This document shows, one piece after another, positions 12,103-34,710 of a stretch of 64,000 bases of DNA. The DNA is from an uncultured Clostridia bacterium (lineage in GTDB: Bacteria > Bacillota > Clostridia > TANB77 > CAG-508), in NCBI GenBank assembly GCA_947626555.1, contig CANQSP010000001.1:42-64041 (forward strand). Reading direction: 5' to 3'. Position 1 is the first letter of the stretch, and each line of letters begins with the position of its first letter. The position numbers and the translations under genes are program-made. The notes beneath the pieces were generated by a model. It did not search any database and was not told the DNA's origin. It saw only the letters and a list, made by a program, of their open reading frames with translations.

Positions 12103-12496
12103 ATGATAGATATAAAAAATTTAATTGAAGTTGCAAAACAAGCAAGAAATAATGCTTATGCTCCATATTCAAATTATAAAGTAGGATGTGCTTTAGTTTC
12201 TAAAAATCGGAAAAGTTTTTTCTGGTTGCAATATAGAAAATGGTGGTATAATGTCAATTTGTGCTGAAAGAGTAGCCTTTTCGAAGGCAATTTCTGAAGG
12301 AGAAAAAAATTTTGAATGTTTACTGGTTTTAGGTGGAAAAGAAAATCTAATATATACTTCTCCATGTGGATATTGTAGGCAATTTATTTCAGAATTTTGC
12401 GATAAAAATTTTAAAATTTATATTTATTATGAAGATGGAAAAATTATTGAGAAGACTTTAGAAGAATTATTGCCAGATAATTTTGAATTAAAATAG
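12103..12496 (+). pseudogene. cdd: cytidine deaminase with +1 frameshift (inserted C at ~12208)
   Basis: N-part MIDIKNLIEVAKQARNNAYAPYSNYKVGCALVSKN then frame change; C-part (ORF 12251-12496) carries CAERVA...PCGYCRQ zinc motifs; deleting C12208 restores ...[27 protein letters not shown]. Confidence 0.8.
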
Positions 12497-17600: not shown

Positions 17601-20600
17601 AAGTGGAAAAATAATTATTACAGATGAGAATGAAAATAAAGTTACAGAAATAGAAATGTCTTTAATTGATACAGAAAATGGAATACAAACATATACCTTA
17701 GACAATATAGAGCAGGGTAAAGGCTATGAAATATCAATAGAAGCAACATACGATTTAGATATAGATAGAACAAATAATAAAAATGAAGAAACCAAAATAA
17801 TTAAAACTCATAAATTTAAAATTGAAAAAGATTATGAATTTACATTAAGTGATTTTAAATTTATAAACATAGAAAATGAAAAAGTAACTTTACAATTTAC
17901 AAGCACCAATAAAACAGAATATATTATTGAAAAAGTTGAAATAGAATTAAACGGAATTAGACATGAATATAAAGTTATAAAAAACGGAGATAATTATACA
18001 ATAGAAATTCCATTAACTGATATAAATAATACAAGAACAGAATTGACACTAGAAGAAGTTATATTAAGTAATTTAAAAGAATTTAACAGAGAAACGGATT
18101 TTGAATTATTTAGTAGCTTAGAAAAACAAGTAATATTTAAAAACAAGCCTACGGCAACAATAGGAAATGTTATAGTAAATGAAGAAGAAACACAGATAAT
18201 TGTAAGCAATATTAGTATAGAAGATACAGATAATGCATTACTTTCAGATAAACTTACAGTACAACTAAGAGATATAAATGGTACAGTTGTGGATAGTAAA
18301 AATATTAGTAGAACTGATACAGCAGTAACATTTGATTATAATAAAGCAGGAGACTACAAAGTAGTCATAGTTGCAGATTATGATATTGTTGACTTACAAA
18401 ATCATACAAATGAAGAGATTGCACAATCATCTATTATAACAATACATATAAAAGCAGAAATTATTAACAGCGAATTTAATAAATATCCAAACAAGAAAGA
18501 GCAAATGACAATAAAATACACAATAAAAGACAACACAAATAAAGATGTAACAGCAATTTATTTTAATGATATAAGGGTTGATGCAGTAAAACTAGGAGAA
18601 GATTTATATGAAGTAGTATACATTGCTCCAACAGAACATGGAAAGAAGTCAATTACTGCTAGTGAATTATATTATGGTGAAGAAGAAGTAGATGTAGTTG
18701 ATAAGAATGATGAAATAGATGTATTAAAAGATAAGCCAATAATTTCTAATTTTAAAGTTGTTACAGCAGGAGATAAGCCTAAGGCAACATTCGATATTAT
18801 AGATACTGATAATTCTTTTGTAGACGGAAAAATTATTATTAAAAATAAGGCTAATGATTCAATTAAAGAAGTTATAATTGTAAAAAATGATACAGGAATT
18901 ATAACAGAATATGAACTAGAAATTGATTCATTTGAACAATATGAAGTTAAATTACAAATAAATTATGATTTAGACTCTAATATTTTACCTTCACAAGGAG
19001 AAAATGATAATGTAGGAATACTTGAACAAGTTATAGAAATTGTTGAAGATATACAACCTTCTAAATTACAAATAAATGACTTAAAACTAAAAGAGGTAAA
19101 TGAAGAACAAGAAACAATAACACTAGAATTTACAAGCAAAAATCCATCTAAACATCATATAGCAAAAGTTAAGTTAGAGGGAAAAGAAGAAGAATTCTAT
19201 GTAACATATGATGAAGCAAGCGATACATATACATTAGTTTTACCATATAATAATGGAGAAAAAGAAACAATAACAATAGAAAAAGTTATTTTGGATAATG
19301 ATACACAAGATGAAGTAATTCTAGAGGAAAAAGCAAGTATCGAATTATTTAAAACAAAGCCTACAGTTCAAGAATTACGAGCTACTTATAATAAAGAAAC
19401 CAAAGTTATAAGTGCAACATTACTTATTAAGGATACGGATAATATAGTTACTAAGGCTTATGCTAAAGTTATTTGTCCAGATGGCGAAGAAAAGACTCAA
19501 GAAGAAGTTACATTAGAAAATAAATCAGGAGAGGTAACATTTGAAAATATAACTAAGGCTGGAACATATAAAGTTGAAATATTAGCAGACTTTAATGCAT
19601 TAGATGGAAAAATACATAATTCCGAAACTCTTGAATTAGAAGATAATGTAACAGATGAAGTATATGTTGAGATAAAAGTTAATGCAGTTTCTACAATAGA
19701 ACTTTCTAATAAGTATCCAGAAAAAGGTGGAACTGTTCAAGTAACATACAACATTGAAGACAATACAGATGAAAAAATAACAGCTATAGAGTATGGTGCA
19801 ACACATATAGCAAATAATCTTGAAGAGATAGACGGAAATTATAAAGCTATTCTTGGAGAGGAATTTACAGCTCAAGCAGGTGTAAGTACACTAAAAATAA
19901 CAAAAATACATTATGGAGATAAAATAATAGATGTAACACATGAGGGTGACAAGATAGATGTTTTAAAAGAAAAAATTTCATTTAATGAAAATACATTTAC
20001 TTCTACAGAAAATTTAGAAAAATCAACTGTTGCATTTACATTTGATATTATAAACCCTGATAATGCAATTATAGATGGAACAGCTTCTGTAGGAGAAAGT
20101 ATACAGAATTTTTCAAAAGCTCAGAATACATTAATATTTAATGTGGAAAAAAATAAAACATTAGAATTATTAATTAAAGTAAATTATGACAGAGATACAA
20201 ACACAATAGTTGAAGATGAAAATAAAAATGTTGAAACGTTAACAGTTGTAAAAGAATTTTCTTTAGATGAAGATATGGAATTTGATATAACGGATATATA
20301 CACAAGTAAAGTAAATACTGAAACATTACAAGAAACAAACACACAATACTTTAATAAAGGAGAAGAATTTAGAGTAAACTTTAAAACTGCTACAAATTCA
20401 GCACTTAAAGTATCCTACGTAACAATTGGTGGAACGAAATATAATGCACAAGAAATAAATAGTGAAGCAAACATAGAAGAAGTTGAAGGATACTATGCAA
20501 TTGTTAAAGCATCAGAAAGTGAAAAAGGAGTAAAAGAATTAAACATAGATTCTGTTACTTTATCAGATGGAAAAGTTATAACACTTGAAAATAAAAACTT

Positions 20601-23600
20601 AAAATATGAAATATTAAAAGATAAGCCTATTATAAATACATTTAATGTAAGCAATATAGGAACAGATGTCAATATTTTAGTAGATGTACTAGATCCAGAT
20701 GATGCATTAAAAGAGACGGCAAAAGTCACAATAACAGACAATTCAAATGGAGAAGAATTATTTAATAGCCCAATTATAAAAGGTACAAATCATTATGAAT
20801 ATAAAGCAGAACTTAATAAAGAATATTTAATTAAAGTTATAAATGGATATGACTTGGATTCAAATGAACTAAATGTTGGAAGTGAAAACTTAAATGTATA
20901 TGAAGAACTATATACACAACAACTTTTAAAAATAGAGGATACGGCTAAATTTTCAGCAGTTCATGTAACAGTACCAAGTATTGTAACAGATGATGATGAA
21001 AACGTAATACTAACTTTTGAAAATGTATACCAATCAATTTATGATGTTAAAGAAGCTACTATAAATGGAATTCCATATACAGTCACAAAAGAAGATAATG
21101 TATACAAAGTAGTTTTAGAAAAAGGAGAAAAAGGTGACAATATATTAAAATTTACATCAGTAAAGCTTTCAAATGATTCTGTATTTGAAGTTAATAGAAA
21201 TATAAAATATTTATATGAAAATGTAAGACCAATAGCTGAAAATATAGAAATAAATGAAGTTCGTAGTGAAGATATGGTAAAAGCTACATTTACAGTTAAT
21301 GATAAAGATGAAGCAACTGAAAAACTATATGCAAGGTTATACAATAGTAATGGAGTTCAAATAGAAGAAACTGAATTAGACAAAAATGCTACAGAAGTTA
21401 GTTTCTCATTGCCAAAAGCATATAAATATAGTATTGATATTTTAGCTGATTATGATAAAGGTAATGGAACAAATTATGAAAAAATTGTAATTGGTTCTAA
21501 AGTTCACGAAGTTGGACCGGTTGTAGAAATAACTGAATTTAAAACAGAAGATAAAAAATTCTTTGAAAAAGATGAAGAAAACGTAAAACTTATATATAAA
21601 ATAAATACAAATATAGATGAGAATGTAAGACTATTTAGAATAAATGGAGTAACATATGATGCAGAAAAAATAGATACGGATACTTATAGAGTGTTATTTG
21701 ATGGTGTTGGAAATCAAGGAGGAACTTTAACTTTAGAAGTACAACAGATTGTATTTGAGAAGACAATGCATAAATTAGAAAACTATTATAAGTCAACTAT
21801 TGAAGTCTTGAGGCAAAAGCCAGAAGTTTCACAGGTAATAGCCGAAAATAAAGATGGCAAATTCGAACTATCATTTAAAATGAAAGATGATGATGAGGCT
21901 CTAACAGGAAACATTAATTTAAGAATACTAGACGAAGAAGAACAAGTTTATTTAGAAGAAAATATACAATTAAATGATAAACAATATAATAAAATTATAG
22001 ATAATTTACAATTTAATAAGGATTACAAGATAATTATAACTGCAAATTATGACTTAGATGGTGATTTAACAGGTAATGGTAATGAATATACAGGTGAGCA
22101 ACTTTTAGAACAAACAATTAAGGTTGAAAATAATATAGAGTACAACTTTAAATTTAGTGATTTTGGACTTATGACTCCAGATATGCCATTAGCATGGCCA
22201 GGATATCCATTATATTTACAATTTATAAGTACAAACGATTCTCAATATAAAGTAGACTCAATTGTTTTAAATGGAGTAGGATATAAAGTTGAAGAAATGT
22301 ATGGATTATATATGATATCAGAATATATTCCTGAAATAAAAAGTGGTATTCAAGAAGTTAAAGCAGAAAAAGTAATATTAAGTAATGGTAAAGCTTTTGA
22401 TATAAATGGTGAGGAAAATAAAGCTAAATTTGAAGTATTAAGAGATTATCCTAAGGCTAGTATTTTATCAATGACAGAAGATACAGAAAGAGGAAAACTA
22501 AAGATTGTATTTCAAATTCGAGATGATTTTAATACAATTAAGGATCCTACAGATATTAAAGTTTTAATATATAGTAGTGACTCAGATGAACCATATCAAA
22601 CCAAAAAAATCTCTATAGGTGATACAGAAGTTGAACTTGATACACCATTAGCCTCTGAATATGTTATAGAATTTTTAGCTGATGCTACAGTTTCAGAATT
22701 GATGCCTGAATATAACCAATTAAACTCTAAATTAGTTGAAAAAACATTTGAAGCTAAACAAAGTACTGTTATTACAGAAGTAAAACCAGAGACATATTAT
22801 CCTGAAAAAGGTGCAATTTTTGGAGTAAATTATAAGATTTTAACATTAAGTAAGAAAAAGGTAGTTGCAATAACTATAAATGGACAGAGAAGTATAGTTG
22901 ATGAAAATGGTACAAATACTTATAAAGCATGTCTTTCAGCAAATAATGAAGCAGGTTTAATGACATTTACAACATCTACAATAGAATTTGAAGATGGGTC
23001 AACAGTTGATTTTAAAGCAAGTGACCAAGTAGAAGTAATAAAAGAATTACCAATAATTACAAATCTTACAAGAACAGATAATTTTGATGAAAAATCTGCA
23101 ACATTTACATTTAATGTAGAAGATCCTGATGGAATAATAAATGAAGGTGGAACATTTAAAGGAAGTATTAATGGGCAAAATAAAGATTTAAATATTGGTG
23201 AGAATTCTATGACATTTACAAATCTAACGCCTAATGCCAATATAGAGTTCAATGTTATTGGTACTTATGATTTAGATACAAATGCATTAAATAGTGTTAC
23301 AGGAAAGAATGATAATAATCATATAGGAGATAAAATCTTTACAAGACAATTCTTATTTACTGAAAATAATGACTTATATAGAGTTACAAAACTAGAAACA
23401 CAAAAAAATAATAAACAAAATACTTATTTTGAAAAGGATGATGAAATAAGACTAAAATTTAACTTTATTTGGGTAGATGACACATATGTAGAAAAAGCAA
23501 AAGTTAACGGAGAAACTTATGATGCTTACAAAAATGGCGAAGATTATACTATTGTTTTAAATAAAATGACCGATGTAGGAATACATGAAATTAAATTAGA

Positions 23601-26600
23601 AAGCATTAAATTAAGCAATGGTAAAGAAATACCACTTAAAGAAAATAATATTGTAAAAATAGAAATACTAAAAGATAAACCTTCAATGAGTAAATTTAGT
23701 TTTAATGATAATGACAAAGATATTTCTTTAAATATTACTATATTAGACAAAGATAATGCTATTCCAGAAAACAATCAACTTGATATTGAAGTACTTGACG
23801 AAAATAATAAAAATGTTTGTTCTGAAAAATTAAATGTAGGAGAAAACACGGTTACATTTAATAAAAATGATAGTAATAGATATTTAATAAAAGTTATAGC
23901 TTCTTATGATAGAGATACAAATGAAATAGATCAAAACTCTAATGAAATTAAAAATGGTGAAATTGCATTTGAAAACATTAATATAAATGAACGTAAATAT
24001 GAATTAAAAGACATTACAAATATTGATGTATACCACTTCTCAGAAGACGGAAACGTTGAAAAGACTAATACTATAGAATATAGTAAAATAAATAGCTATA
24101 AAGAAACTTATATAGTAAAAGTAGAAATGAAATCTCTACCATCATATTATGGAAAGATAGAAGAATATAGGAATGAAAATGGTAAATTAGTATTTACTCT
24201 AAGTAATGAAAATATAATTTTATACAATAATGATGAACCAACTGAAAAATGTGACATAGTTTATGGAACAATAGTAGGTGATATAGCTACTAAAGAAGAC
24301 ATCTATTCTTTAAATGATAGTAGTCCAGAAGGACTATATATTCCTGATTATAATAGAATTAGCAAATTACAAGGATTTAGTACAGAGAAACATAAATTAT
24401 ATCATAACTTAAATAAATTAATGCCATTTTATGATTCTAAATACTTAGTAAGAGACGGAGAAAAAATAGAAAAAGAAAATATATTAAATACAAAACTAAT
24501 AAAAGAAGTAATTCCTGTAAATAAAAATGGTGAAGCGGTTATTGCAGTTTCAACAGATGATTACCAAAATTTATCAAGCATAAAAGTAATATTTGATGAT
24601 GACGAAATGAAAAAATATAATATTGAGTTTAATGAATATTATAGTGGAATAGCATCATATATTATTCCAGAACTAGGAATTGAATATAACTATAATAATT
24701 ATGTTATAAAATCAGATGCTAGAATTATAAAGGATTTAAAAGATACAATAAGTAAATTCAACTATAGAACTGATTTAGATGTATTAACAGCAGATTTAGA
24801 TAGTAGAATTTATAGAGAATATTACGAAGATACATTAAAACAAGAATTTGATGATTTTATTAAAAAATTATTAGTTAGCAAAAATTATAGTGTAGTAATA
24901 GAAAGTGATACCTATAACGAACTAATTAAAAAGGACTTATTAAGTGAAACAACTTTAATGAAATGGATATATGCATACAATTATATTCATCGTTGGTATT
25001 CTTTCGATATAGATGGCTTAAAGATGAGTGATATACTTGTATTTAAAGGTAATTTATTAAATAAACCTACAACAATAGAAAGCATATCTCAAGATGTTTT
25101 AAGCGGAAATATAACTACCTATTCAACAGGAGAATTCTATAAAAATAAATTAGCACAATACACAGGACAACAAGATGTATTTGAATTTGTAAAATATTAT
25201 GTGCAAAAATATGCGGAAGACAAAAATATAGAGACTTGGTATAGAGATAATGTTCCAGGTATAGTTGTAGAAGCACAATGTATAAATAAAGAAGTACAAT
25301 ATTCACTATGGCATAATTTAAGTATAAATGTAGGAAAGTATAATAAATATGTACTTGTACTTCTAACACTTCCAGATGATGCAGCATATATAATTTCAAA
25401 TCCAACATCTATATTGTTCGGATCTCAAAGAACATACGTACAAAATCCTAAAGATCCAGTACAAAGAGCTAAGTTACAAGCATTAGCTGATAGTTTTGCT
25501 AATGATGTATCAAAATTCTTCTCAACACTTTCAACATTTGTATCAATTGAAGAGATGAATAGAATGAGTACGGTGCATTTAGATACATTATTAACATATG
25601 TTGATGGAGGTACTGGTTCAAGAGTTGTTCAAAAACCTTTAACGACACAAGAGCCATTCCATAAAAACTTCTGCGAAGTTTTAAATGATTGGACAATTTT
25701 GAAAGGAGCTGGAGCATACTGTGGCGGAGGTAGTGTATACTTTGTTTATGAAGATGCATTACGTGCATACTCAGTATGGACTCATGAAAATGCACACTTA
25801 GGAGCATTCCAGAATTTGCTATGTGGTGGATGCAGAAATAGAATTATAAGAGAAGATATGCCTGATGGAAATATAACGCAAGGTTCAGGAGATGGTGGAA
25901 TAAGCTTTAACTTAACTTATGATTATGACAAAAATGCTTTAGTTACTACAAATTTAACAACGGAAAGAATAAATACTCCTGAAAAAATGAAGCAATTCTA
26001 TAGCAGATTGATAGATACAAGTGATTTCTTAGATTATATTGAAGCTAAAGCATTCTTACAGTTAAATGCTGAACAACAAGCTAAATTATGCTTACAAGTG
26101 TCTTATCCGAAAGGATCAGGTCAATATATAGATGGAGAAATAACTAAATACGAAAAAATAGATAAAGAAAAAATTGAAGCAATGCATTTAGATGATGTTC
26201 ATGATTTATGGACAAATCAAATAGTAATGGTGCCTGGTGTAACAGAAAGAACAATGACACCAAGTCTGTATGGAGGAGATTCAATATACACAAGACATTG
26301 GTATCAACCATATAATGACAATGGTAGAGCTGATTCATATAGTTTTAAATGGTTAGCATTTGAAATGATTGCAACAGGAGGATATAAGGAGGGCTATAGA
26401 TATTGGTATGGTAGCAACGGAGGAAAAATAAAAAATGATTTACAATCATTAAGAGCAATTACTAAAAATGAAAATATGACATTTGAACAATATAAAATAG
26501 ACAGATATAATAAGATGCAGAATAACTGGGAGAATATGAAATTCTTTGATGCAACTGAAGTACAAAAAGAATACTTAGAAGCATTAAAGAAAGATGCAGA

Positions 26601-28215
26601 AGAAAATGATAATAAACTTACAAATAGTACAGCTGTTAAAAGAAAATATTATTATATGGTAAAACAAGGAACAGATGATTTTAGACAAGAGATATTTGAC
26701 TATGTGCCAGAAAAAGTTGAATCTAAAGAGTATGTTTCTACAGCAAAAGAATTTGTTGATGCATGTAAATTAAAATCAAGTAGCACAATTTACTTAGAAA
26801 AAGATATTGATTTATCTGAATACGATACAGGAAGTGCTATTGTAACAAATGCATTTACTGGAACAATTGAAGGTCAAAATAATACAATAACAGGACTTAA
26901 ATTACCATTATTTGCATCATTGTCAGGGGCAACTGTTAAAGATTTAATTATAGACGATTCTACTATAATTATAAATAGTACAGATATAGGAGCATTAGCT
27001 AAAACAATGACAGGAACAGAGTTAAATAATATTACTATTAAAGGTTTATTAATGAGTTCTAAAAATAACAAACAAGTGGGTGCTTTAGTTGGTTCTGCTT
27101 ATAACTCAAATATTAAAGATTGCCATGCTATTAATGTAAATGTATTTGGTTCAACTAGAACAGGAGGACTTATAGGATATGCTGTAAATAATTGTACTAT
27201 TGAGGAGAGTACTTCGAATGCAACAGTAACAGCTACAGCTGATGCAGCGGCAGTACTTGTAGGAGAGTGCAACAGTTCAACTATAAAAAATTGCTATGCA
27301 ATTGGAAGTATTAATGTATCTAGTGCAGCAAATTATGCAGGTGGAATTGTAGGCTGGGCTGATGGCACATCTATACATAATAATTATGCTAAAGTTTCAG
27401 TATCTGCAGTTAAGAGTAATTCGGGTGTATTTAGTGGTACTATTAGAAATAAATTTGATGTTCAAAATAATATTGCTATAGCAAACGGACTTTCACATGT
27501 TAATATAGGGCTATTCGATAACGATACTGAAGCAAGTAAAATGAATAGTAGTGATACATTTAAAAATAATTATGAAATAGCAAATGGATTTACAGGTAAA
27601 ACAAGTAGTGCAAGAGGAGTAAAAGCAGAAAAAATTAAATCAATGACAATACAAGAACTTACAAAGGAATTCATGCAAGAAAATTTACATTGGGATGAAA
27701 AAATATGGAACTTGGATTCTCTTGAGGAAGGTGGCTTACCAACATTAAGAAATCACGATCCAAATAAATCAGAGAGTGCATTAATATTAATGAATGAATC
27801 TAATAAATTAGATTCACTAGATGAGTTAAAAGTTAATGATGAAGAAGTTGTGAATACTATTGAAGACACAAACATAGTCGACACTAATACGCTAAATACA
27901 GCAAATGAAATAAATAATACAAATATGCTAAATGAGGCAAATGAGACAAATGAAATAAATAATACGAATGTGCTAAATGAAGCGAGTACGACGAATGAAA
28001 TAAATAATACGAATATGCTAAGTGAAGCAAGTACGACGAATGAAATAAATAATACGAATATGCTAAGTGAAGCAAATACGACGAATGAAATAAATAATAC
28101 AGATATTCTAAATGAAAAGAATACAAACAACATAGTAGATAGCAATACTTTGGAAGAGAAAAGCGAAAATGAAGTAATTAGTGATACAGTTAATAGTATA
28201 GAAACAACTGAATAA
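14638..28215 (+). CDS. giant (4525-aa) multidomain surface protein: signal peptide, cohesin-like domain, two TM helices, type-I dockerin, P/N-rich linker, ~13 tandem ~290-aa modules, HExxH zinc-metallopeptidase (M26/IgA-protease-like) region with GLUG-type Gly-rich repeats, C-terminal 15-aa tandem repeats
   Basis: MKKITFFLITMILSLAVATSVNA signal (probable start ATG 14650); DVNKDGKVDYDD / DINKDGQITIGD Ca-loop pairs; recurrent ...VLKDKP...YDLD module boundaries; WTHENAHLGAF; GGLIGY/GGIVGW/GALVGS repeats; single uninterrupted ORF. Confidence 0.85.
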   Translation: MMENMKKITFFLITMILSLAVATSVNAVENIELKTSKDKVNLGEEIIVSLDLNIENKEETSLYAYTAKLSYDKDVFEVIDESDFEESENWSDITYNKRNNKFALINKKGETDESILKIKLKVRKNATPGNTSITVNSITASDGKKDIPIEGKTVDVMVIKTGLAEGESIPLNKTNEVVEDTSNIEVGKDFSWIAYILIALIIVIFIFTIYYYISSKKRNTSKNKRITIMVASIIILVILLITTIILLTDKKADVNKDGKVDYDDTKDIIEYLLEIKNPQEDENLSDKDINKDGQITIGDVAASTNQATNQDYHANVNGSNNNSNTNGSTNNQSSEANASKPNNPSNSTNPSEPSNPNEPSNPSGSTNPNEPSNPTNPTEPSNPANPNEPDNPDNPNIPSEPTKPDNPNTPSDPTKPDNPNTPSEPTKPEEQYSSVVETTTVSNLTPKKGQEITLDLYIDVTPYTEIEAIEIEGKSYKVTKVEEPSVRIASLVPVKFKAIASNINGGENNHYKVTIQAPTSAGVQDIHITKIELDNGKKVSIDYSVKVDVLKDAPKVNDFYIDDKNEIPEISFNIEDSDGAFKGGKFSITDVDGNVVFVSENIKVGKNTFSANLEDGKTYHYDLVADYDLDHDYFAENIAPNHREEKDFIDDIIEDEEGNLEFTREYNFLSKNMMITPEVSSEDELILSFENGAESYYKVTYVKVNGVEYEVKLENGKYITKLKKGSKGNNTITVESVKLENGHIFTVNQTFSYVYLKDKPTIGDIEVKLEEGNLHVSAPITDQDNTIKSVQVKIKDQNGNVIKTEKLNKNSNNGLYLNDIEIDVSGKYTVEVEVTYDLGNGKENKVSKIYAKNITEPIKATILKEQSSMAEYATRGKKVEAIYTIEDNTEKEVTHITINGVKIPATKLSDEKYKVEFLAPSERPQNGKTTIIASELYYKDEVEPIEVECAFEIEILKSVPTIEDLHINDSREKPEINFVLVDAENAFISGKIIITDENENKVTEIEMSLIDTENGIQTYTLDNIEQGKGYEISIEATYDLDIDRTNNKNEETKIIKTHKFKIEKDYEFTLSDFKFINIENEKVTLQFTSTNKTEYIIEKVEIELNGIRHEYKVIKNGDNYTIEIPLTDINNTRTELTLEEVILSNLKEFNRETDFELFSSLEKQVIFKNKPTATIGNVIVNEEETQIIVSNISIEDTDNALLSDKLTVQLRDINGTVVDSKNISRTDTAVTFDYNKAGDYKVVIVADYDIVDLQNHTNEEIAQSSIITIHIKAEIINSEFNKYPNKKEQMTIKYTIKDNTNKDVTAIYFNDIRVDAVKLGEDLYEVVYIAPTEHGKKSITASELYYGEEEVDVVDKNDEIDVLKDKPIISNFKVVTAGDKPKATFDIIDTDNSFVDGKIIIKNKANDSIKEVIIVKNDTGIITEYELEIDSFEQYEVKLQINYDLDSNILPSQGENDNVGILEQVIEIVEDIQPSKLQINDLKLKEVNEEQETITLEFTSKNPSKHHIAKVKLEGKEEEFYVTYDEASDTYTLVLPYNNGEKETITIEKVILDNDTQDEVILEEKASIELFKTKPTVQELRATYNKETKVISATLLIKDTDNIVTKAYAKVICPDGEEKTQEEVTLENKSGEVTFENITKAGTYKVEILADFNALDGKIHNSETLELEDNVTDEVYVEIKVNAVSTIELSNKYPEKGGTVQVTYNIEDNTDEKITAIEYGATHIANNLEEIDGNYKAILGEEFTAQAGVSTLKITKIHYGDKIIDVTHEGDKIDVLKEKISFNENTFTSTENLEKSTVAFTFDIINPDNAIIDGTASVGESIQNFSKAQNTLIFNVEKNKTLELLIKVNYDRDTNTIVEDENKNVETLTVVKEFSLDEDMEFDITDIYTSKVNTETLQETNTQYFNKGEEFRVNFKTATNSALKVSYVTIGGTKYNAQEINSEANIEEVEGYYAIVKASESEKGVKELNIDSVTLSDGKVITLENKNLKYEILKDKPIINTFNVSNIGTDVNILVDVLDPDDALKETAKVTITDNSNGEELFNSPIIKGTNHYEYKAELNKEYLIKVINGYDLDSNELNVGSENLNVYEELYTQQLLKIEDTAKFSAVHVTVPSIVTDDDENVILTFENVYQSIYDVKEATINGIPYTVTKEDNVYKVVLEKGEKGDNILKFTSVKLSNDSVFEVNRNIKYLYENVRPIAENIEINEVRSEDMVKATFTVNDKDEATEKLYARLYNSNGVQIEETELDKNATEVSFSLPKAYKYSIDILADYDKGNGTNYEKIVIGSKVHEVGPVVEITEFKTEDKKFFEKDEENVKLIYKINTNIDENVRLFRINGVTYDAEKIDTDTYRVLFDGVGNQGGTLTLEVQQIVFEKTMHKLENYYKSTIEVLRQKPEVSQVIAENKDGKFELSFKMKDDDEALTGNINLRILDEEEQVYLEENIQLNDKQYNKIIDNLQFNKDYKIIITANYDLDGDLTGNGNEYTGEQLLEQTIKVENNIEYNFKFSDFGLMTPDMPLAWPGYPLYLQFISTNDSQYKVDSIVLNGVGYKVEEMYGLYMISEYIPEIKSGIQEVKAEKVILSNGKAFDINGEENKAKFEVLRDYPKASILSMTEDTERGKLKIVFQIRDDFNTIKDPTDIKVLIYSSDSDEPYQTKKISIGDTEVELDTPLASEYVIEFLADATVSELMPEYNQLNSKLVEKTFEAKQSTVITEVKPETYYPEKGAIFGVNYKILTLSKKKVVAITINGQRSIVDENGTNTYKACLSANNEAGLMTFTTSTIEFEDGSTVDFKASDQVEVIKELPIITNLTRTDNFDEKSATFTFNVEDPDGIINEGGTFKGSINGQNKDLNIGENSMTFTNLTPNANIEFNVIGTYDLDTNALNSVTGKNDNNHIGDKIFTRQFLFTENNDLYRVTKLETQKNNKQNTYFEKDDEIRLKFNFIWVDDTYVEKAKVNGETYDAYKNGEDYTIVLNKMTDVGIHEIKLESIKLSNGKEIPLKENNIVKIEILKDKPSMSKFSFNDNDKDISLNITILDKDNAIPENNQLDIEVLDENNKNVCSEKLNVGENTVTFNKNDSNRYLIKVIASYDRDTNEIDQNSNEIKNGEIAFENININERKYELKDITNIDVYHFSEDGNVEKTNTIEYSKINSYKETYIVKVEMKSLPSYYGKIEEYRNENGKLVFTLSNENIILYNNDEPTEKCDIVYGTIVGDIATKEDIYSLNDSSPEGLYIPDYNRISKLQGFSTEKHKLYHNLNKLMPFYDSKYLVRDGEKIEKENILNTKLIKEVIPVNKNGEAVIAVSTDDYQNLSSIKVIFDDDEMKKYNIEFNEYYSGIASYIIPELGIEYNYNNYVIKSDARIIKDLKDTISKFNYRTDLDVLTADLDSRIYREYYEDTLKQEFDDFIKKLLVSKNYSVVIESDTYNELIKKDLLSETTLMKWIYAYNYIHRWYSFDIDGLKMSDILVFKGNLLNKPTTIESISQDVLSGNITTYSTGEFYKNKLAQYTGQQDVFEFVKYYVQKYAEDKNIETWYRDNVPGIVVEAQCINKEVQYSLWHNLSINVGKYNKYVLVLLTLPDDAAYIISNPTSILFGSQRTYVQNPKDPVQRAKLQALADSFANDVSKFFSTLSTFVSIEEMNRMSTVHLDTLLTYVDGGTGSRVVQKPLTTQEPFHKNFCEVLNDWTILKGAGAYCGGGSVYFVYEDALRAYSVWTHENAHLGAFQNLLCGGCRNRIIREDMPDGNITQGSGDGGISFNLTYDYDKNALVTTNLTTERINTPEKMKQFYSRLIDTSDFLDYIEAKAFLQLNAEQQAKLCLQVSYPKGSGQYIDGEITKYEKIDKEKIEAMHLDDVHDLWTNQIVMVPGVTERTMTPSLYGGDSIYTRHWYQPYNDNGRADSYSFKWLAFEMIATGGYKEGYRYWYGSNGGKIKNDLQSLRAITKNENMTFEQYKIDRYNKMQNNWENMKFFDATEVQKEYLEALKKDAEENDNKLTNSTAVKRKYYYMVKQGTDDFRQEIFDYVPEKVESKEYVSTAKEFVDACKLKSSSTIYLEKDIDLSEYDTGSAIVTNAFTGTIEGQNNTITGLKLPLFASLSGATVKDLIIDDSTIIINSTDIGALAKTMTGTELNNITIKGLLMSSKNNKQVGALVGSAYNSNIKDCHAINVNVFGSTRTGGLIGYAVNNCTIEESTSNATVTATADAAAVLVGECNSSTIKNCYAIGSINVSSAANYAGGIVGWADGTSIHNNYAKVSVSAVKSNSGVFSGTIRNKFDVQNNIAIANGLSHVNIGLFDNDTEASKMNSSDTFKNNYEIANGFTGKTSSARGVKAEKIKSMTIQELTKEFMQENLHWDEKIWNLDSLEEGGLPTLRNHDPNKSESALILMNESNKLDSLDELKVNDEEVVNTIEDTNIVDTNTLNTANEINNTNMLNEANETNEINNTNVLNEASTTNEINNTNMLSEASTTNEINNTNMLSEANTTNEINNTDILNEKNTNNIVDSNTLEEKSENEVISDTVNSIETTE
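15655..15930 (+). repeat. ~18-bp tandem repeats encoding PSNP(N/T)EP linker
   Basis: ccaagtaatccaaacgaa-type units, in-frame inside giant gene. Confidence 0.7.
27904..28128 (+). repeat. five 45-bp tandem repeats encoding NEINNTNMLSEASTT
   Basis: Near-identical 45-bp units at C-terminus of giant gene. Confidence 0.8.
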
Positions 28216-28330: not shown

Positions 28331-28777
28331 TTATTGGCAATTACAACTATTATTGTTGTCGCACATTTTTTTAGAGCAATTAGACATATAGAATTTCTTT
28401 TCAGCCAATTTATCTTGTACTCCACGAAGAGCTTCTCCAAATCTTTGGAAGTGAACAATTTCTCTTTGACGTAAGAAACGAAGTGGATCTAATACATCTG
28501 GGTCATCTCTACATAAATCTATTAATTTTTCATAAGTTGCTCTTGCTTTTTGCTCTGCTGCTAAGTCTTCTTGAAGGTTTGCAACAGGGTCACCTTTACA
28601 AGCAATATATGCTGCTGTCCATGGGGTTCCAGAAGCGGATACTGGGTATACATCTACACCATGGTCTGTATAATATGCGCCTAATCCTGCTTTTTCTATA
28701 TCTTCAGGACCAACACCTTCTGTTAATTGATGAACTATTGAACCTACCATTTCTAAGTGAGCTAATTCTTCTGTACC
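28331..28777 (-). pseudogene. cotJC: cotJC 3' segment (Mn-catalase-like spore coat protein CotJC, residues ~71-218), separated from its 5' segment by a 5-kb element
   Basis: Translation begins abruptly at HGTEELAHLEMVGSIVHQL... (Mn-catalase signature) with in-frame TGA immediately upstream; no start or RBS. Confidence 0.8.
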
Positions 28778-28919
28778 ATGATGTTGTCAATCATAATAAT
28801 CCTAAAAAAAGTAATACTTTCTATCTATTATTGTCTAAGGAAAAATTACACAATTAAAAGTATCTTTTTTATCACTATTACCATATTATATATTACTATT
28901 TATGAAAGAAGGAGATTTT

Positions 28920-29729
28920 ATGTTTTTTATTCCATCAAATGATAATGCAAATATAGCGGTTTATGAATTAAATCCAAATGCATATAAAACGATAGTTTTA
29001 ATACATGGTTGGCCTTTATCACACAAAATGTTCGAATATCAGCTACCAGATTTAATAAGAAATGGTTATAGAGTTATAAGTATTGATATAAGAGGATTTG
29101 GAAACTCTGATGTAACAAGTGATGGATATAATTATAATCAATTTGCAACTGATTTATATTATGTAATATATGCTTTAAATTTATCAAATTTTGATTTACT
29201 AGGTTTTTCAATGGGAGGAGCAATTGCTACAAAATACATGCAAATGTATAATGGATATGGTGTTAGAAAATTATGCTTATTAGATTCTTCTGTTCCTTCA
29301 TATTCAAAAACAACAAATAATCCATATGGTCAAACAATACAATCTACCAATGATTTAATAAATCTAGGATATAATGATAGACCAGTTTTAAATGAAAATT
29401 TCGGAAATATGTTTTTTTACAAAAGACCTTCTGATGCGTTTAAAAATTGGTTTCAAAATTTAAGCAATAGTGCTTCTGGAATAGGAGAAATGAATTCTTT
29501 AATTGCTCTTAGGGATGAAGATATATTTGATTCGTTAAAATATATTCATATTTCAACAGCTATTTTTCATGGAAAGGAAGATAGAATATGTCCTTTTCCT
29601 ATGGCAGAAATTATGCATAATAATATTCGTTCTTCAATTTTGTTTCCACTTGAAAATGCTGGGCATGGTGCATTTTATGACGTTAAAGATGAATTTAATA
29701 GGTCTTTAATAAAATTTTTAAATTATTAA
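28920..29729 (+). CDS. alpha/beta-hydrolase fold protein (element cargo)
   Basis: HGWPLS oxyanion region, GFSMGG nucleophile elbow, C-terminal His; AAGGAGA RBS before ATG 28920. Confidence 0.7.
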   Translation: MFFIPSNDNANIAVYELNPNAYKTIVLIHGWPLSHKMFEYQLPDLIRNGYRVISIDIRGFGNSDVTSDGYNYNQFATDLYYVIYALNLSNFDLLGFSMGGAIATKYMQMYNGYGVRKLCLLDSSVPSYSKTTNNPYGQTIQSTNDLINLGYNDRPVLNENFGNMFFYKRPSDAFKNWFQNLSNSASGIGEMNSLIALRDEDIFDSLKYIHISTAIFHGKEDRICPFPMAEIMHNNIRSSILFPLENAGHGAFYDVKDEFNRSLIKFLNY

Positions 29730-29801
29730 TTTAATTATGAAAATCCGTACCATAATGTTGTCAATTAAAAAAATTTAGGGCTATTTGCTGTATAAAATAT
29801 A

Positions 29802-30335
29802 AGTTCACTGAGTGTACTTAATGAAATACACTTAGTGAACTTTTTATTTTATGCTTTAATTTTATATTCAACACTTTTTTCTTCTAATAACTTGAAATTA
29901 CAACTTACAAATATGGGGGATACTTTTATAAGTACCCCCTAATTTTTCAGGAAACTCGTTTATAGTTAAACTAAAGGCTCGTTTCTAACCTAATGTTCAA
30001 TAGGATATTTGTTTATAGAATTTTCATTCTAAAGGCTCATATCTAACCTAATGTTTAAATTGCACTTGTTTATGAAGTTAATCAAAGGTTCGTGCTAACC
30101 TAGTTTATTTGATAAATTGCTTTACCAATATTAGTATATTCATTATACTATATTTTATTTACAAAATCAAAACTTATACACAAATTCTAATTCAAAATTT
30201 GTATTCACTTAGTGTATTTTTTTCAATTCATTTAGTGAACGAAATTATTACACCTAGTGAACTTTTCGGTTCATTTAGTGAATTTTAGTACTCTGATAAG
30301 TTTTTTTTAGCAATACATTCGGTGAATTATTGCAT
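29802..30335. promoter_or_regulatory. array of 7 palindromic operator-like sites (consensus TTCACTtAGTGAA) plus three ~50-bp iterons (29957-30112)
   Basis: Sites at 29803, 29827, 30205, 30228, 30252, 30270, 30316; iterons GTTTATnnn...AAAGGCTCGTnTCTAACCTAATGTT x3; 900-bp non-coding tract upstream of recombinase. Confidence 0.5.
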
Positions 30336-30475
30336 CATTTTTGCATAACTTTTTTGCTCACTTCTCAATTCTCTTTGCCTTTTATCTTCTTTGAATTCTT
30401 CTACTGTCCATTTCTTTACTTGTCTTGGGCATTTTTTTGTGTTTATTTTCATAAATTTTAAAGAGGCGATTTAAT

Positions 30476-30613
30476 ATGGTAATAGAAGAATATACGATTG
30501 AAAATACAAAGATAAAATTTTATGATGACTGTATTGTAGCAGATACTGTTACTCAAAAAGAATATATAGATAACATTATTATTAATTTAATACAAAATTC
30601 TCCTTTGTTGTAA
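30476..30613 (+). CDS. small hypothetical protein (45 aa) upstream of recombinase; candidate directionality/regulatory factor
   Basis: AAAGAGG RBS 9 nt before ATG; MVIEEYTIENTKIKFYDDCIVADTVTQKEYIDNIIINLIQNSPLL. Confidence 0.3.
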   Translation: MVIEEYTIENTKIKFYDDCIVADTVTQKEYIDNIIINLIQNSPLL

Positions 30614-30676
30614 TTTGGCATATTTTCTTATATAATGTTTACAAGTTAAAGACAAATTACAAGGAAAGGAGGAAAT

Positions 30677-32239
30677 GTGCAAAATGATGGCACATATGCA
30701 ATATATTTAAGAAAATCAAGAGAAGATATTGAAGCAGAAAAATACGGAGAAGGCGAAACTTTAGCAAGGCATGAAAAGATTTTAACTACTTTAGCAGAAA
30801 AAAGGAATTTACATATTTCAAAAATTTATAGAGAAGTTGTAAGTGGCGAAACAATTAGCGAAAGAAAAGAAATGCAGAAACTTCTTAAAGATGTTGAGAA
30901 TGAAAAATGGACAGGTGTTTTGGTTGTTGAAGTAGAAAGGTTGGCTCGTGGAGATACAGCAGACCAAGGTATAGTATCAAAAGCATTTAAATATTCGCAT
31001 ACAAAGATTATTACACCTGTTAAAACTTATGATCCAGATAATGAATTTGATGAAGAATATTTTGAATTTGGATTGTTTATGTCTAGAAGAGAGTATAAAA
31101 CAATAAATAGGCGTCTGCAAAGAGGTCGTGAGATTTCAGTCCAAGAAGGTAAATTTGTAGGCAATATTGCACCTTTTGGTTATGATAGAGTTAAATTAAA
31201 AGATTCAAAAGGTTATACATTATCTATTAATGAAAATGAAGCACTTATTGTTAAAGAAATATTTAGGTTATATACTTTTGAAAATAATACTATTAGTTCA
31301 ATTGTAAAGCAGTTAAATAATATGAATTTAAAGCCTAGAATTTCTAATGAATGGACGATTTCTACTGTTAAAGAAATTCTTTCTAACCCAACATATATTG
31401 GTAAATTAACATGGAATAGAAGAAAACAAAAAAAGAAAACTAAGAATGGACATATTATAATTTATAGACCACGCAATAAAGATTATTTAATTTATGATGG
31501 ACTACATGAACCTATTATTGATAATAAAACATGGGAATTAGTTCAAGAAAAAAGAAAGCAAAATACTCCAAAAGCAAAGCATAGTTATCAAATTCAAAAT
31601 CCACTAGTAGGACTAGTATTTTGTGAAAAATGTGGAAAGCCAATGCAAAGAAGACCTTATAACAAAGCCAATAAACCTGCAACTCTTATGTGCTCTAATT
31701 CTGTATGTAATAATATAAGTTCTAAACTTTATATTGTTGAAGATAAAATAATTGAAGCTTTGGAAATATGGCTTGAAAATTATAAAGTAGATTATGAAAT
31801 TAAAGACAATTTAAAATCTAATAACAATGAAATAATAAAAAAGTTCATTACTACAAATAAGAAAGAGTTAAAAAAAGAAAATATTAAACTTAATAAAATT
31901 TATGACTTTTTAGAAAATGGTATTTATAATAAAGAAGAGTTTATAAATCGTTCAAAGGCTATTAAAGAGAATATAGAAATTTTAGAAAATAAGTTAAAAG
32001 AGTATAATTCTTTATTGGAAGATAATGCTAAAATAAAAAATGAAAAAGAAACAATGATACATAAACTAAAGAATGTTTTAGATTTATATTATAAATTAGA
32101 AGTAGCTGAAGATAAAAATATTTTACTAAAAAGTATTGTTACTAAAATTACCTATTTAAAAACTAAAAAATCCATAAAAAAGGGTTCTAATCCAACTGAT
32201 TTTGAATTGCATATATATCCTAAAATACCTAAAAGTTAA
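30677..32239 (+). CDS. large serine recombinase (resolvase catalytic domain + recombinase domain + zinc ribbon + coiled coil)
   Basis: GTG start 4 nt after GGAGG; N-term YAIYLRKSREDIEAEKYGEGETLARHEKIL (catalytic Ser region), central recombinase domain, CEKCGKPMQ...CSNSVCNN zinc ribbon, C-terminal coiled coil. Confidence 0.88.
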   Translation: MQNDGTYAIYLRKSREDIEAEKYGEGETLARHEKILTTLAEKRNLHISKIYREVVSGETISERKEMQKLLKDVENEKWTGVLVVEVERLARGDTADQGIVSKAFKYSHTKIITPVKTYDPDNEFDEEYFEFGLFMSRREYKTINRRLQRGREISVQEGKFVGNIAPFGYDRVKLKDSKGYTLSINENEALIVKEIFRLYTFENNTISSIVKQLNNMNLKPRISNEWTISTVKEILSNPTYIGKLTWNRRKQKKKTKNGHIIIYRPRNKDYLIYDGLHEPIIDNKTWELVQEKRKQNTPKAKHSYQIQNPLVGLVFCEKCGKPMQRRPYNKANKPATLMCSNSVCNNISSKLYIVEDKIIEALEIWLENYKVDYEIKDNLKSNNNEIIKKFITTNKKELKKENIKLNKIYDFLENGIYNKEEFINRSKAIKENIEILENKLKEYNSLLEDNAKIKNEKETMIHKLKNVLDLYYKLEVAEDKNILLKSIVTKITYLKTKKSIKKGSNPTDFELHIYPKIPKS

Positions 32240-32317
32240 AGTCTTTGATTATTTTGTTGAATGATAGTAAAAAATATAGTAAAATAAGTAAAATATAATT
32301 TATAAAGGGAGAAAAAA

Positions 32318-32821
32318 ATGAATCAAAATTTATATGAAGAATTAATTAAAAGAAAAAATGGGGGAGAAAAGTTAGATTGGAGCTCTATAACCAAAGAAGA
32401 ATTAGAAAATTTATTTGAAGAACATAGCGACAGTATGATAGCTGAACTATATAATATAACCAAATCACAAGTAATCAATAAAAGGAGAGAGTGGGATATA
32501 AAACAATATAATTATTTATTAAAAAATTTTCTAAAAGATGATAAAAATGATATTTTATTAAAAAATTTAAACCAAGGTTCTAAAGATAGATTATTAAATA
32601 AAAAAAATATAGACACTATTGCAATAGCTTTAACACATTATTTATTTAGAAATGGACCTGTAGAAGATATGCATAGTAGCGGAAAATTATCTCAAAATGA
32701 TATGAAAACGCTTAACAAATTTATGGTAAATAGAATAGCTGGGTTACTACAAACTATAAATAGAGAAGAATGGCTAAAATTAGAATTATTGTTAAATTAT
32801 TATAATACATTTTCTCGGTAA
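32318..32821 (+). CDS. hypothetical protein with N-terminal HTH-like segment (element cargo)
   Basis: AAGGGAG RBS; IAELYNITKSQVINKRREW resembles sigma-r4/HTH; no confident family. Confidence 0.4.
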   Translation: MNQNLYEELIKRKNGGEKLDWSSITKEELENLFEEHSDSMIAELYNITKSQVINKRREWDIKQYNYLLKNFLKDDKNDILLKNLNQGSKDRLLNKKNIDTIAIALTHYLFRNGPVEDMHSSGKLSQNDMKTLNKFMVNRIAGLLQTINREEWLKLELLLNYYNTFSR

Positions 32822-33135
32822 AGATTGGGATAAGCCGGTTGCAGATACAAAAGAAATAGATTTAGAATATAAAAAGTTTTTAGATAAAATTTAATTTACA
32901 GTCAATAAACAAAGTTATAATTTGGTTGGTTTTTGAGGCTATTCCAATTACAAATAACTTATATTTTTAGCTATTGACAACATATTGGTATGCATTCTTT
33001 TGTATCACAATATTGTCAATTTGAAGAATTAAAGGCTTTTGGCTGTAAAATTTTAATAATTTTAAAGAAAAATCTAAGGTTTGATTGAAAAATGCATATA
33101 TATGTAGTACAATGATTTTCGAAAGGAAAGATTTA

Positions 33136-33549
33136 ATGCAAGAAAAAGAATACATAGAAATTGGTAAATTAAATACAGAACTTTTTGAAAAAATTGGTGA
33201 GCATTTAATAACAAATGAAGTTATTTTTACTTATGAGAGAATGAATCATGTTAAAACAAAAAGAGTTCAATTATTTAATGAGGTAAAAGGTATTTTGCCA
33301 GATGTTTTATATAATCCAGATTACATATATAAAGATTGGAACAACAGAAATAATACATTAGTATTGATTAAATCTATAGATGAGAAGTTGAACCTAAATG
33401 TAGTATTAAAAATTGCTATATTAAATGATGATAAGCATACCAAAAATTCTATAATAACTATGATAAAAATAGGTAATAAAACTTTTAACAAAATAAAAAG
33501 AAACAAAAAAGCTAATTTATTATTTGAAAAACTAGACATTTATGAATAA
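33136..33549 (+). CDS. hypothetical protein (element cargo)
   Basis: ATG 33136 after GAAAGGAAAG RBS (ORF track 33085); no recognisable domain. Confidence 0.4.
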   Translation: MQEKEYIEIGKLNTELFEKIGEHLITNEVIFTYERMNHVKTKRVQLFNEVKGILPDVLYNPDYIYKDWNNRNNTLVLIKSIDEKLNLNVVLKIAILNDDKHTKNSIITMIKIGNKTFNKIKRNKKANLLFEKLDIYE

Positions 33550-33790
33550 AAGTTGTATAATTAAAGTACAATATAGAATAGTTATTTGAGGTGGTAAATT
33601 GTGTCAACCACGCACCCTATGGGTCAAAAGAGATGTAGGAAATGATACACCTACCAAATAACTAACAATCGAAAAAAGGGCTATGGAAACATAGCTCTTT
33701 TACTTATTTTACAACATTATAAATTTCTTCAAACACTGCTGGTCTTTTAGAATAGTCTTGTCTTTAGCTATTGACAACATATTGGTACGT

Positions 33791-34013
33791 ATTCTTCTGT
33801 ACCTATATCATTTAAAGTTGCTTTAGAGTTTTGGTCTGGCATTCCGAATCTTTGAGATAAATATCTTAAAGAAGCTGAAAGCTCTCCATCAGGGCCACCG
33901 TATTGAGAAATTATAAATTTAGCAAGTCTTGGATTTGGACATTTTATATTGATAGGATATTGTAATACTTTGTTATAAGTCCACATTAAAAATTCCCCCT
34001 TTCCCATGGCCAT
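33791..34013 (-). pseudogene. cotJC: cotJC 5' segment (residues 1-74) truncated by element insertion
   Basis: MAMGKGEFLMWTYNKVLQYPINIKCPNPRLAKFIISQYGGPDGELSASLRYLSQRFGMPDQ...DIGTEE then reads into element (YVPICCQ*); overlaps cotJB stop as in cotJ operons. Confidence 0.8.
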
Positions 34014-34360
34014 GGTTCTTCAAGCCATCTCCACTTATTACATGGAAAATAGATAGAAAGAGGTCCATAAACCTTTTGATATTTTTCCTTTAAATCTTTA
34101 AGCTTCTTTGAATATTCTTTATGAAGACAAATAGCTCTTTCGTCATCTGGGTGAGTATTTAAATATTCAGAAATATCAACAACAGCGAAATCTAAAGCAC
34201 GAATTTTATTAAGCATTTCATCTCTTTGCATTTGCTTTTCTCCACAATTATTATCATTTTGCATATTAGTAAATTCATAAGAATAAGTTGAAACTGCAGG
34301 TGATTGATTATTTGAAGAACAACAGCAGTTACAATTTCTGTTTTCGCAATCTTCTAACAT
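33986..34360 (-). CDS. cotJB: spore coat protein CotJB with Cys-rich N-terminal extension
   Basis: GGGGAGGG RBS 9 nt upstream; ...MLNKIRALDFAVVDISEYLNTHPDDERAICLHKEYSKKLKDLKEKYQKVYGPL matches CotJB; N-term CENRNCNCCCSS. Confidence 0.8.
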   Translation of the reverse strand: MLEDCENRNCNCCCSSNNQSPAVSTYSYEFTNMQNDNNCGEKQMQRDEMLNKIRALDFAVVDISEYLNTHPDDERAICLHKEYSKKLKDLKEKYQKVYGPLSIYFPCNKWRWLEEPWPWERGNF

Positions 34361-34710
34361 TTGTTACATCCCTCCCCAATAGTATTTGTAGCTTCTATAA
34401 AAGCATTTTCTTCTAATGATTGACAAGGTGAATAAGGATTTACAAGTTCAGGGAAGATTGTTCCCATTTTTAATCCAACACTAGGAGTAAAAGTTTGATT
34501 CATTGTTTGAATTGGAACATAACTTTGACCAAACATTGGATTAGCTGGAAATACAGATGGTGCTTCATCAAATCCACAACCACAGTCATCATTGTCATTA
34601 TTTGCTGAGTAATAATCTGCTTTAATACCACAGTTACTACAAGCAGTTTCTATAATGTCACTATTATAATTTTGCTGACAACAACATTTTTTATATTTGC
34701 AATTATACAT
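34354..34710 (-). CDS. cotJA: spore coat protein CotJA with Cys-rich N-terminal extension
   Basis: AGGAGG RBS; ...SYVPIQTMNQTFTPSVGLKMGTIFPELVNPY matches CotJA core; N-term CKYKKCCCQQNY; overlaps cotJB start. Confidence 0.75.
   Translation of the reverse strand: MYNCKYKKCCCQQNYNSDIIETACSNCGIKADYYSANNDNDDCGCGFDEAPSVFPANPMFGQSYVPIQTMNQTFTPSVGLKMGTIFPELVNPYSPCQSLEENAFIEATNTIGEGCNKC

Follow-up and report, generated by a model that had tools for sequence, protein, structure and literature searches.

We analysed a stretch of 64,000 nt from an uncultured Clostridia bacterium (contig CANQSP010000001.1 of assembly GCA_947626555.1, positions 42 to 64,041; the whole stretch is called the window below), in which the coat gene cotJC is split by an insert encoding a large serine recombinase (LSR). 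The two segments of cotJC lie on either side of the insert and belong to a broken operon with cotJB and cotJA upstream (Table 1). Joining position 28777 to 33804 yields an uninterrupted CotJC of 218 amino acids (aa) that belongs to the Mn_catalase family (Pfam E 3.9e-54) and reads …DIGTEELAHLEM… / …NDIGTEELAHLEMVG… across the join, while the 5' open reading frame (ORF) as it stands continues for seven codons of element sequence before its stop at 33768. The insert (28778-33790) comprises 5,013 bp with a GC content of 25.0%, as against 27.7% for the window, and all its genes are on the plus strand. In Bacillus subtilis the cotJ operon is a sigma-E-dependent operon of the mother cell; on this basis we assume mother-cell expression of the sporulation gene that is split here, at codons 71-74. 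Removal of the insert restores the intact frame in silico for the window, and a natural intact allele exists in the species of a related element, described below.

Both ends of the insert are marked by the same 13-mer, ATTCTTCTGTACC, whose exact copies at 28765-28777 and 33791-33803 are the only two in the window. Just inside this core, the 11-mer arm ATTGACAACAT forms a perfect inverted pair (28781-28791 on the minus strand, 33770-33780 on the plus strand), and the arms can be lengthened to 19 nt with 17 of 19 positions complementary (28773-28791 / 33770-33788). The end coordinates, arms and junction strings given by a sequence-only reading of this DNA were all recovered, and so was its observation that the repeat codes for GTEE of CotJC (reverse complement GGT ACA GAA GAA T). 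In 64 kb the 11-mer or its complement occurs four times, with 0.09 expected, and all four copies fall inside the insert, the two internal ones at 29755-29765 and 32973-32983. Copies of the 13-mer with at most one mismatch also number four, against 0.13 expected from dinucleotide shuffles. The one-mismatch copies, ATTCTTCTGTTCC, are located at 9428-9440, far from the element, and at 29284-29296, within the hydrolase gene; neither adjoins arm motifs and both are probably due to chance.

A lone 13-bp direct repeat is insignificant in this AT-rich window, which contains 765 pairs of 13-bp direct repeats spaced 1-10 kb apart, compared with about 120 in mononucleotide shuffles. We judge the repeat significant because it lies at both breaks of one gene and next to inverted arms, and because both features are conserved in more than 20 other genomes. 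Most of the excess of short direct repeats stems from a repetitive surface-type protein of 4,525 aa (14638-28215; Peptidase_M26_C according to the source's Pfam record), which ends about 100 bp from the cotJC 3' end.

Circularization of the insert would create an attachment site, attP, with the structure ATTGACAACAT-N10-ATTCTTCTGTACC-N3-ATGTTGTCAAT, a near-palindrome of about 48 bp with the junction sequence …GGTACGTATTCTTCTGTACCATGATG… (TTGGTACGTATTCTTCTGTACCATGATGTTG); the predicted attB junction is …GAGCTAATTCTTCTGTACCTATATC… (GTGAGCTAATTCTTCTGTACCTATATCATT). As typical of serine integrases, whose att sites are about 40-50 bp long, these in silico sites are short and show imperfect dyad symmetry, the central dinucleotide being non-palindromic. 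The near-palindromic circular junction proposed earlier is borne out by a contiguous copy, 41/48 identical and equally spaced, inside the insert (32973-33020). Since this copy exists and an equivalent internal junction occurs in L017 (L numbers denote loci in other genomes or assemblies that were compared with the window), the predicted attP is represented by real contiguous DNA. Among the relatives, attL is conserved as …GCTA-ATTCTTCNGTNCC-ATGATG(T/A)TGTCAAT and attR as TTTAGCT-ATTGACA(A/T)CAT-N8-NN-ATTCTTCNGTNCC-(A/T)ATATCA.

The recombinase of the insert has the full domain set of a serine integrase, in which recombinase and zinc-ribbon domains come after an N-terminal resolvase domain bearing the catalytic serine nucleophile (Pfam Resolvase 2.5e-14, Recombinase 1.6e-23, Zn_ribbon_recom 2.8e-7). 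Its residues 9-511 align to SprA/YokA of SPbeta (PDB 9dxh, E 1e-48), the motif YLRKSRED facing YLRRSRQD of SprA (YLR(K/R)SR(E/Q)D), which upholds the earlier view of the ends as attL and attR of an LSR element. The integrase of the Clostridium perfringens phage PhiS63, 42% identical over 98% of the LSR, is among its closest phage relatives. No GTEE-like core was found within the 2-2.5 kb flanks of the closest phage integrases (phiIBB_Pl23 and PhiS63), and these phages probably use other targets. The dN/dS ratio (nonsynonymous to synonymous substitution rates) of the LSR is about 0.11.

Directly upstream of the LSR gene lies an ORF of 45 aa, and the same arrangement was found in every locus with LSR identity of at least 61%, the ORF being present in 22 of the 22 loci for which the LSR-upstream region was available. 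Its homologues form 126 protein clusters, nearly all of 45-47 aa, and gave no match in Pfam, PHROG or PDB (including the YotN fusion). By analogy with GirX (42 aa) and CD1234, we consider its product a candidate recombination directionality factor (RDF). The 167-aa cargo ORF was ruled out for this role, as only three loci carry it. A sigma-E-like promoter match precedes the 45-aa ORF; the relaxed pattern matched four times in 128 kb, with about two matches expected, and the CATAAAT box is almost invariant across 18 loci. In most relatives a conserved hairpin with a T-run precedes the small ORF, and the sigma-A-type promoter match before the LSR gene is conserved in most loci.

Next, we compared occupied with empty sites. 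Many uninterrupted CotJC proteins show 90-92% identity to the one rebuilt from the window, and at five such loci of other species, one of them syntenic, the flanks of the window insert align with an 11-nt overlap at the core. One abundant species provides both alleles, in occupied contigs (L166-L173) and empty ones (L174-L177), some of which come from the same study. Over about 10 kb, the empty L174 and L175 share 99.6-99.9% nucleotide identity with the occupied L169. In this species attB is GTTCTTCTGTACC, attL is GTTCTTCAGTTCC and attR is ATTCTTCTGTACC, so that attB combines the left portion of attL with the right portion of attR, the core being present once (L169 versus L174/L175). The two core copies differ between attL and attR in six relatives (L007, L008, L011, L012, L013 and L166). 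LSRs exchange strands conservatively at a 2-bp centre and produce no target duplication, and the allele pair displays just this. Because attB consists of left attL and right attR, the 13 bp are the identity common to attP and attB, and the earlier description of them as duplicated host sequence has to be abandoned. Part of the left-hand core copy is borne by the element and mimics the host GTEE codons.

The same-species pair places the exchange within core positions 2-7, and together with the sites of the relatives it confirms that the crossover falls inside the repeat. Across relatives, the stretch always identical between attL and attR covers positions 2-6 (TTCTT). In two loci (L003, 10014-17548, and L010, 7075-14134) what adjoins the right P arm is ATTC|GTGAAACCCATAAGG and not cotJC, and divergence begins right after ATTC. 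The dyads of the outer 11-mers and of the inner GGTAC/GTACC are both centred between core bases T3 and C4. Due to these three observations, the crossover is most likely the TC at core positions 3-4 (28767-28768 / 33793-33794), that is, the GA of the second Glu codon. The outer-arm motif, which by the LSR zinc-ribbon-domain rule should lie 5 bp further inward in attB than in attP, matches by eye at 5 of 8 positions in both B half-sites, a chance level for AT-rich DNA. Beyond the heterologous junction of L003 and L010, about 7 kb are 99.9% identical between the two metagenome-assembled genomes (MAGs), though their cotJC elements differ. A heterologous tandem element is one possible explanation of this region, which contains RadC, a resolvase fragment and SHOCT, and a rearrangement with the crossover as its joining point is another.

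A species-level scan, which took one genome per species, revealed 21 other loci with an LSR 76-95% identical over the best-matching segment, all of them in MAGs of gut Clostridia (from mouse, rabbit and others). In each of the 21, one junction or more joins the element to cotJC at residues 70-78. LSRs only 44% identical, from Paenibacillus lacisoli and Muricoprocola aceti (Lachnospiraceae), abut cotJC at the same codons, which indicates that the pairing of recombinase and target is old; the Muricoprocola arm is related to the window arm. The 12 complete elements measure 3.3-7.5 kb and have just two universal genes, the LSR and the small ORF (12/12), accompanied in relatives by variable cargo such as AbiQ/ToxN, PDC-S05/RhuM and a weakly pVip-like radical SAM protein. 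The element of the very common gut species (L166-L173, 4886-6764) carries AbiQ/ToxN (PADLOC E 3e-45) and a 234-aa ORF; L168 is devoid of the latter gene, and cargo hence varies inside one species.

Table 1. Features of the cotJC locus and its insert (window positions)
Feature	Position	Strand	Remarks
cotJC 3' segment, codons 71-218	28331..28777	-	tblastn and translation; contiguous with 5' segment in intact homologues
attL	28744..28791		host B half-site, shared core 28765-28777, element P' arm 28773-28791 GTACCATGATGTTGTCAAT; conserved in 16 loci
alpha/beta hydrolase (esterase/lipase-like), cargo	28902..29729	+	Pfam Abhydrolase_1 E 1e-24; PHROG esterase/lipase
orphan internal P' half-site GTACCATAATGTTGTCAAT	29747..29765		no P arm on left side
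sigma-E-like promoter match GCATTTT-N14-CATAAATT	30429..30457	+	before 45-aa ORF; pattern match only
45-aa ORF, candidate RDF	30476..30613	+	just upstream of LSR
sigma-A-type promoter match TTGTAA-N17-TATAAT	30608..30636	+	before LSR gene; conserved in most loci
LSR, 520 aa, SprA-like	30677..32239	+	catalytic motif YLRKSRED
167-aa cargo ORF, no family	32318..32821	+	no Pfam match; homologues in L012, L017
internal complete attP-like site (P arm, core, P' arm)	32973..33020		41/48 identical to attP predicted from ends, same spacing
154-aa cargo ORF, PBECR2/3 nuclease-like	33085..33549	+	Pfam E 5e-6 (at cut-off); phrog_29609 E 3e-19
skipping-rope RNA RF02924	33581..33662	+	74.7 bits; gathering score 36.7
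attR	33770..33825		element P arm 33770-33788 ATTGACAACATATTGGTAC, core 33791-33803, host B' half-site
cotJC 5' segment, codons 1-74	33791..34013	-	tblastn and translation
cotJB	33986..34360	-	Pfam CotJB E 1e-25; upstream gene of broken operon
cotJA	34354..34710	-	Pfam CotJA E 6e-12; upstream gene of broken operon

We have shown so far how the insert is built and bounded. Structurally it is almost certainly an LSR element that is bounded by defined att sites and was inserted site-specifically, precisely and conservatively. Among the ORFs of the insert, Pfam and PHROG comparisons detected no phage structural, lysis or replication genes and no relaxase, Mob or conjugation domains; the sole ORF with a phage-function PHROG is the LSR itself (integrase), the rest falling into esterase/lipase or unknown-function families. 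The best explanation overall, which we consider quite likely to be correct, is a non-phage LSR element residing in the GTEE codons of cotJC and excised in the mother cell.

The proposed course of events is as follows. The SprA-like LSR inserted the element at the GTEE codons by recombining attP with attB, which have 13 bp in common, and strands were exchanged conservatively at one central dinucleotide to give attL (28744-28791) and attR (33770-33825). The LSR would be made from the sigma-A-type promoter, and the 45-aa protein, acting as directionality factor, from the sigma-E-like promoter in the sporulating mother cell. There the two proteins together would recombine attL with attR, so that the entire composite would leave as a circle; cotJC would be rebuilt in the genome of the mother cell, a terminal cell, whereas the forespore would retain the element. 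That excision is developmental in this sense seems rather probable by analogy with skinCd, SPbeta and gin. It is supported by the dN/dS of about 0.15 of cotJC rebuilt from interrupted genomes and by the predominance of the occupied allele in the abundant species, where the small ORF was indexed in 828 blocks as against a handful of empty contigs.

Several observations weigh against excision in the mother cell. For the window strain, neither an intact cotJC of the same species (the best match is 92% identical) nor an excision product was seen. The strict attP-junction pattern, expected from circles or tandems, had no match in JGI metagenomes and IMG/VR, and a loose pattern gave 120 chance matches, none with the core or a related LSR. 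The role of the 45-aa ORF and its sigma-E-like promoter, recognized by pattern match only, are candidate assignments. Decayed copies occur: the LSR of L030 (8001-9559), which faces the opposite element end, has two frameshifts, and in L017 an insertion of 1 nt just past the attR core (13002-13040) would frameshift the rebuilt cotJC; L017 also contains a fragmented, decayed second LSR (11740-12266). Distances of LSRs and of cotJC genes are uncorrelated (r 0.18) and the synonymous divergence dS is lower for the LSR (0.60) than for cotJC (1.08), which means that the elements move between species, so that intact cotJC halves are no proof of reconstitution. The same r value rules out co-divergence of element and host as a sign of long residence. 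Finally, since cotJC-type catalases are dispensable for coat assembly in Clostridioides difficile (PMC11222575), a permanent knockout of cotJC might be tolerable. The movement between species, the decayed copies and the dispensable catalase would equally suit an ordinary integrative element that uses conserved cotJC as a dependable landing site, leaves it broken and excises for horizontal transfer; the defence and addiction genes carried by relatives point the same way, and presence/absence polymorphism is just as explicable by transfer. We regard this alternative as unlikely. Both halves of cotJC are kept intact in carriers and under the constraint given above, the exceptions being L017, L015 (split N-terminal matches) and both L002 and L004 (C-terminal part ending near codon 111). 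Also at odds with a mere landing site are the very high frequency of the occupied allele in one abundant species, the lack of relaxase, conjugation and phage structural genes in an element of 3.3-5 kb, and the sporulation-timed excision published for skin (B. subtilis, C. difficile), SPbeta, vfbin, vrin and gin.

In another alternative, the insert would be a transposon of the Tn4451/Tn5397 kind, in which the LSR alone both excises and inserts and the 45-aa ORF has nothing to do with directionality. In its favour, the insert is small, non-phage and clostridial and has a single LSR, and the GA predicted as crossover on the coding strand is the dinucleotide used by TnpX. We find this account improbable. 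Insertion was not loose but strictly confined to a single site, the same cotJC codons at 21 of 21 loci, and no mobilisation gene was found; the closest characterised relatives of the recombinase are RDF-using integrases (SprA) and phage integrases (PhiS63); at each locus that we examined, LSR and small ORF occur side by side; and internal attP-like sites persist unresolved beside attL and attR, as expected of a direction-controlled integrase. As for the most trivial explanation, chance matches or an assembly chimera, 13-mer direct repeats are indeed frequent in this AT-rich window, but the same structure is present at 99.7-99.99% identity in three further independent metagenome assemblies and recurs in the more than 20 other genomes, and the arm 11-mer exceeds its expectation by far. 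This explanation is already refuted, and we assign it practically no weight.

The favoured reading, an LSR element leaving cotJC during sporulation, has several published precedents. In gin of Bacillus cereus ATCC 10987, a non-phage element likewise sits inside a mother-cell sporulation gene (gerE) and combines an LSR (GirC) with a tiny RDF (GirX), the latter 42 aa long and without conserved motif; its junctions share a 9-bp core (PMC5595907). The likeness, drawn from the published description, ends at the target (cotJC and not gerE), the number of LSRs (one versus three in gin) and the gut Clostridium host. The promoter arrangement resembles skinCd of C. difficile, where the LSR CD1231 has a constitutive sigma-A promoter and the RDF CD1234 a sigma-E promoter with a short leader (PMC5025042); in the window a sigma-A-type LSR promoter and a sigma-E small factor are suggested by sequence pattern. 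Unlike the present element, skinCd is prophage-like and interrupts sigK, a regulator gating development, whereas cotJC is a structural/enzymatic coat gene, and in the window the small ORF immediately precedes the LSR gene, both being on one strand. SPbeta (SprA/YokA and SprB/YotN) provides the closest solved LSR homologue and interrupts the spore-envelope gene spsM, which is rebuilt in the mother cell (PMC4191935, PMC5499854), but SPbeta is a functional temperate phage (PMC4191935) and the element described here is 5 kb long without phage genes. PhiS63, a functional sigK-intervening prophage of C. perfringens (PMC3442830), has a related integrase and also targets a sporulation gene, yet it is a complete phage with a different target gene.

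In organisation and promoter logic, the element is thus closest to gin and skinCd, in recombinase sequence to SprA. As an integration target, cotJC is reportedly listed by Abe et al. 2013 (Mol Microbiol 90:415). A preprint (10.1101/2021.11.22.469490) names cotJC, gerE, yaaH and yhbH as frequent integration targets, citing Abe et al. 2013. No paper pairing cotJC with an intervening element was found in the open-access literature searched. The element appears to belong to the known sporulation-gene intervening kind (skin, SPbeta, vfbin, vrin, gin, yin), with a target that is not new in principle and a family that seems to be uncharacterised. What is added here is no new mechanism; it is a two-gene core, a bound on the crossover, a natural allele pair and tandem/attP fossils, in a family from abundant, mostly uncultured gut Clostridia that is well defined and widespread and whose elements are very small (3.3-7.5 kb). 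In silico, attP, attB, attL and attR are supplied with the crossover narrowed to 2-3 bp, and the LSR and the 45-aa ORF make a compact candidate pair of integrase and RDF.

Serine-recombinase elements seem to have a hotspot in the cotJ operon, with more than one site in use. Other LSR genes are located between cotJB and the cotJC start in L002 (12822-14267), L011 (14208-15647), L021 (3610-4683) and L029 (8001-9461); the first three are unrelated (24-27% identical) and that of L029 is a 42%-identical relative. In L014 an unrelated LSR gene (10382-11500; 24%) lies just past the cotJC 5' fragment, with no cotJB in view. The shortened cotJC 3' part of L002 ends near a further LSR gene (2287-3258).

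Upon closer examination, the insert proved to be composite. Its internal attP-like site is accompanied by the orphan half-site at 29747-29765, which is followed by the canonical left-end sequence of the family (about 100 bp, to about 29868) and leaves the hydrolase unit outside. Window 30433-32922 matches L012 7752-10233 and window 32994-33751 matches L012 6937-7695; due to both matches, window 30433-33751 can be viewed as a circular permutation of an L012-type element around the internal attP. To judge by its sequence, the insert is a decayed tandem of family units, and the internal site and the half-site are fossils of head-to-tail junctions. These fossils may stem from tandem integration, from integration of a dimer or from homologous recombination involving an incoming circle; deletions would have come later. 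Only the outermost attL and attR pair rebuilds cotJC.

Staphylococcal cassette chromosome (SCC) composite islands, which are moved by Ccr LSRs, accrete head-to-tail at one site and contain internal att copies and recombinase-less units. The internal sites of the window (29747-29765 and 32973-33020) and of L017 are reminiscent of them, although SCC uses another recombinase clade, targets the rlmH 3' end, splits no gene and has no tie to development. We tentatively raise the idea, which we rate as rather doubtful, that the cotJC site serves as an accretion platform where units, some without recombinase, are joined head-to-tail via attP-type junctions. Examples would be a 0.75-kb unit of PBECR-like ORF and skipping-rope RNA and the hydrolase unit. 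Re-integration via an internal attP would reshuffle the units, and accretion would thereby account for cargo that is found to the left of the LSR in L012 and L013 and to its right in the window. If true, this would amount to an LSR-based, cassette-like array of defence and other cargo in a sporulation gene, removed only from the mother cell. With their anti-phage and toxin-like cargo and their tandem accumulation, the elements of this family bear on the spread of defence genes among spore formers.

The cargo of the window itself gave no PADLOC matches, and no convincing ToxI-like antitoxin array emerged when the insert and L166 were searched for tandem repeats. The hydrolase gene occurs at other positions in L005 and L010, and a homologue of the 154-aa ORF is placed at the left element end in L012 and L013. 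Skipping-rope RNA (75-77 bits) always follows this PBECR2/3-like ORF and is itself followed by a terminator-like hairpin, at 33674-33701 in the window (whole arrangement 33085-33701; L012 7028-7607; L013 4632-5208). Weinberg et al. 2017 (PMC5737381) noted a 'compelling association' of skipping-rope RNA with a nearby protein, and the two might form a toxin/RNA module.

Close to their left ends, family elements repeatedly carry arrays of palindromes of the type TTCAC-N4-5-GTGAA (GTTCACTNNGTGAAC), in the window at 29794-29849 and 30194-30290, in L008 at about 1065-1110 and in L017 at about 9935-9975; they may be operator or binding sites. Between the two window arrays, the segment 29904-30170, with 30-nt repeats at 29971 and 30029, is 80-87% identical to L006 3072-3336 and L011 11056-11321, both outside cotJC elements, and similar sequence adjoins the LSR in L021. 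This segment has the appearance of a small mobile or repeat module in its own right. Group II intron-like sequence (L038 1-1300, with an RVT_1 ORF encoded on the other strand) was seen in the same strain from a different sample, where on a 4.9-kb contig it takes the place of all sequence to the left of about window position 29909.

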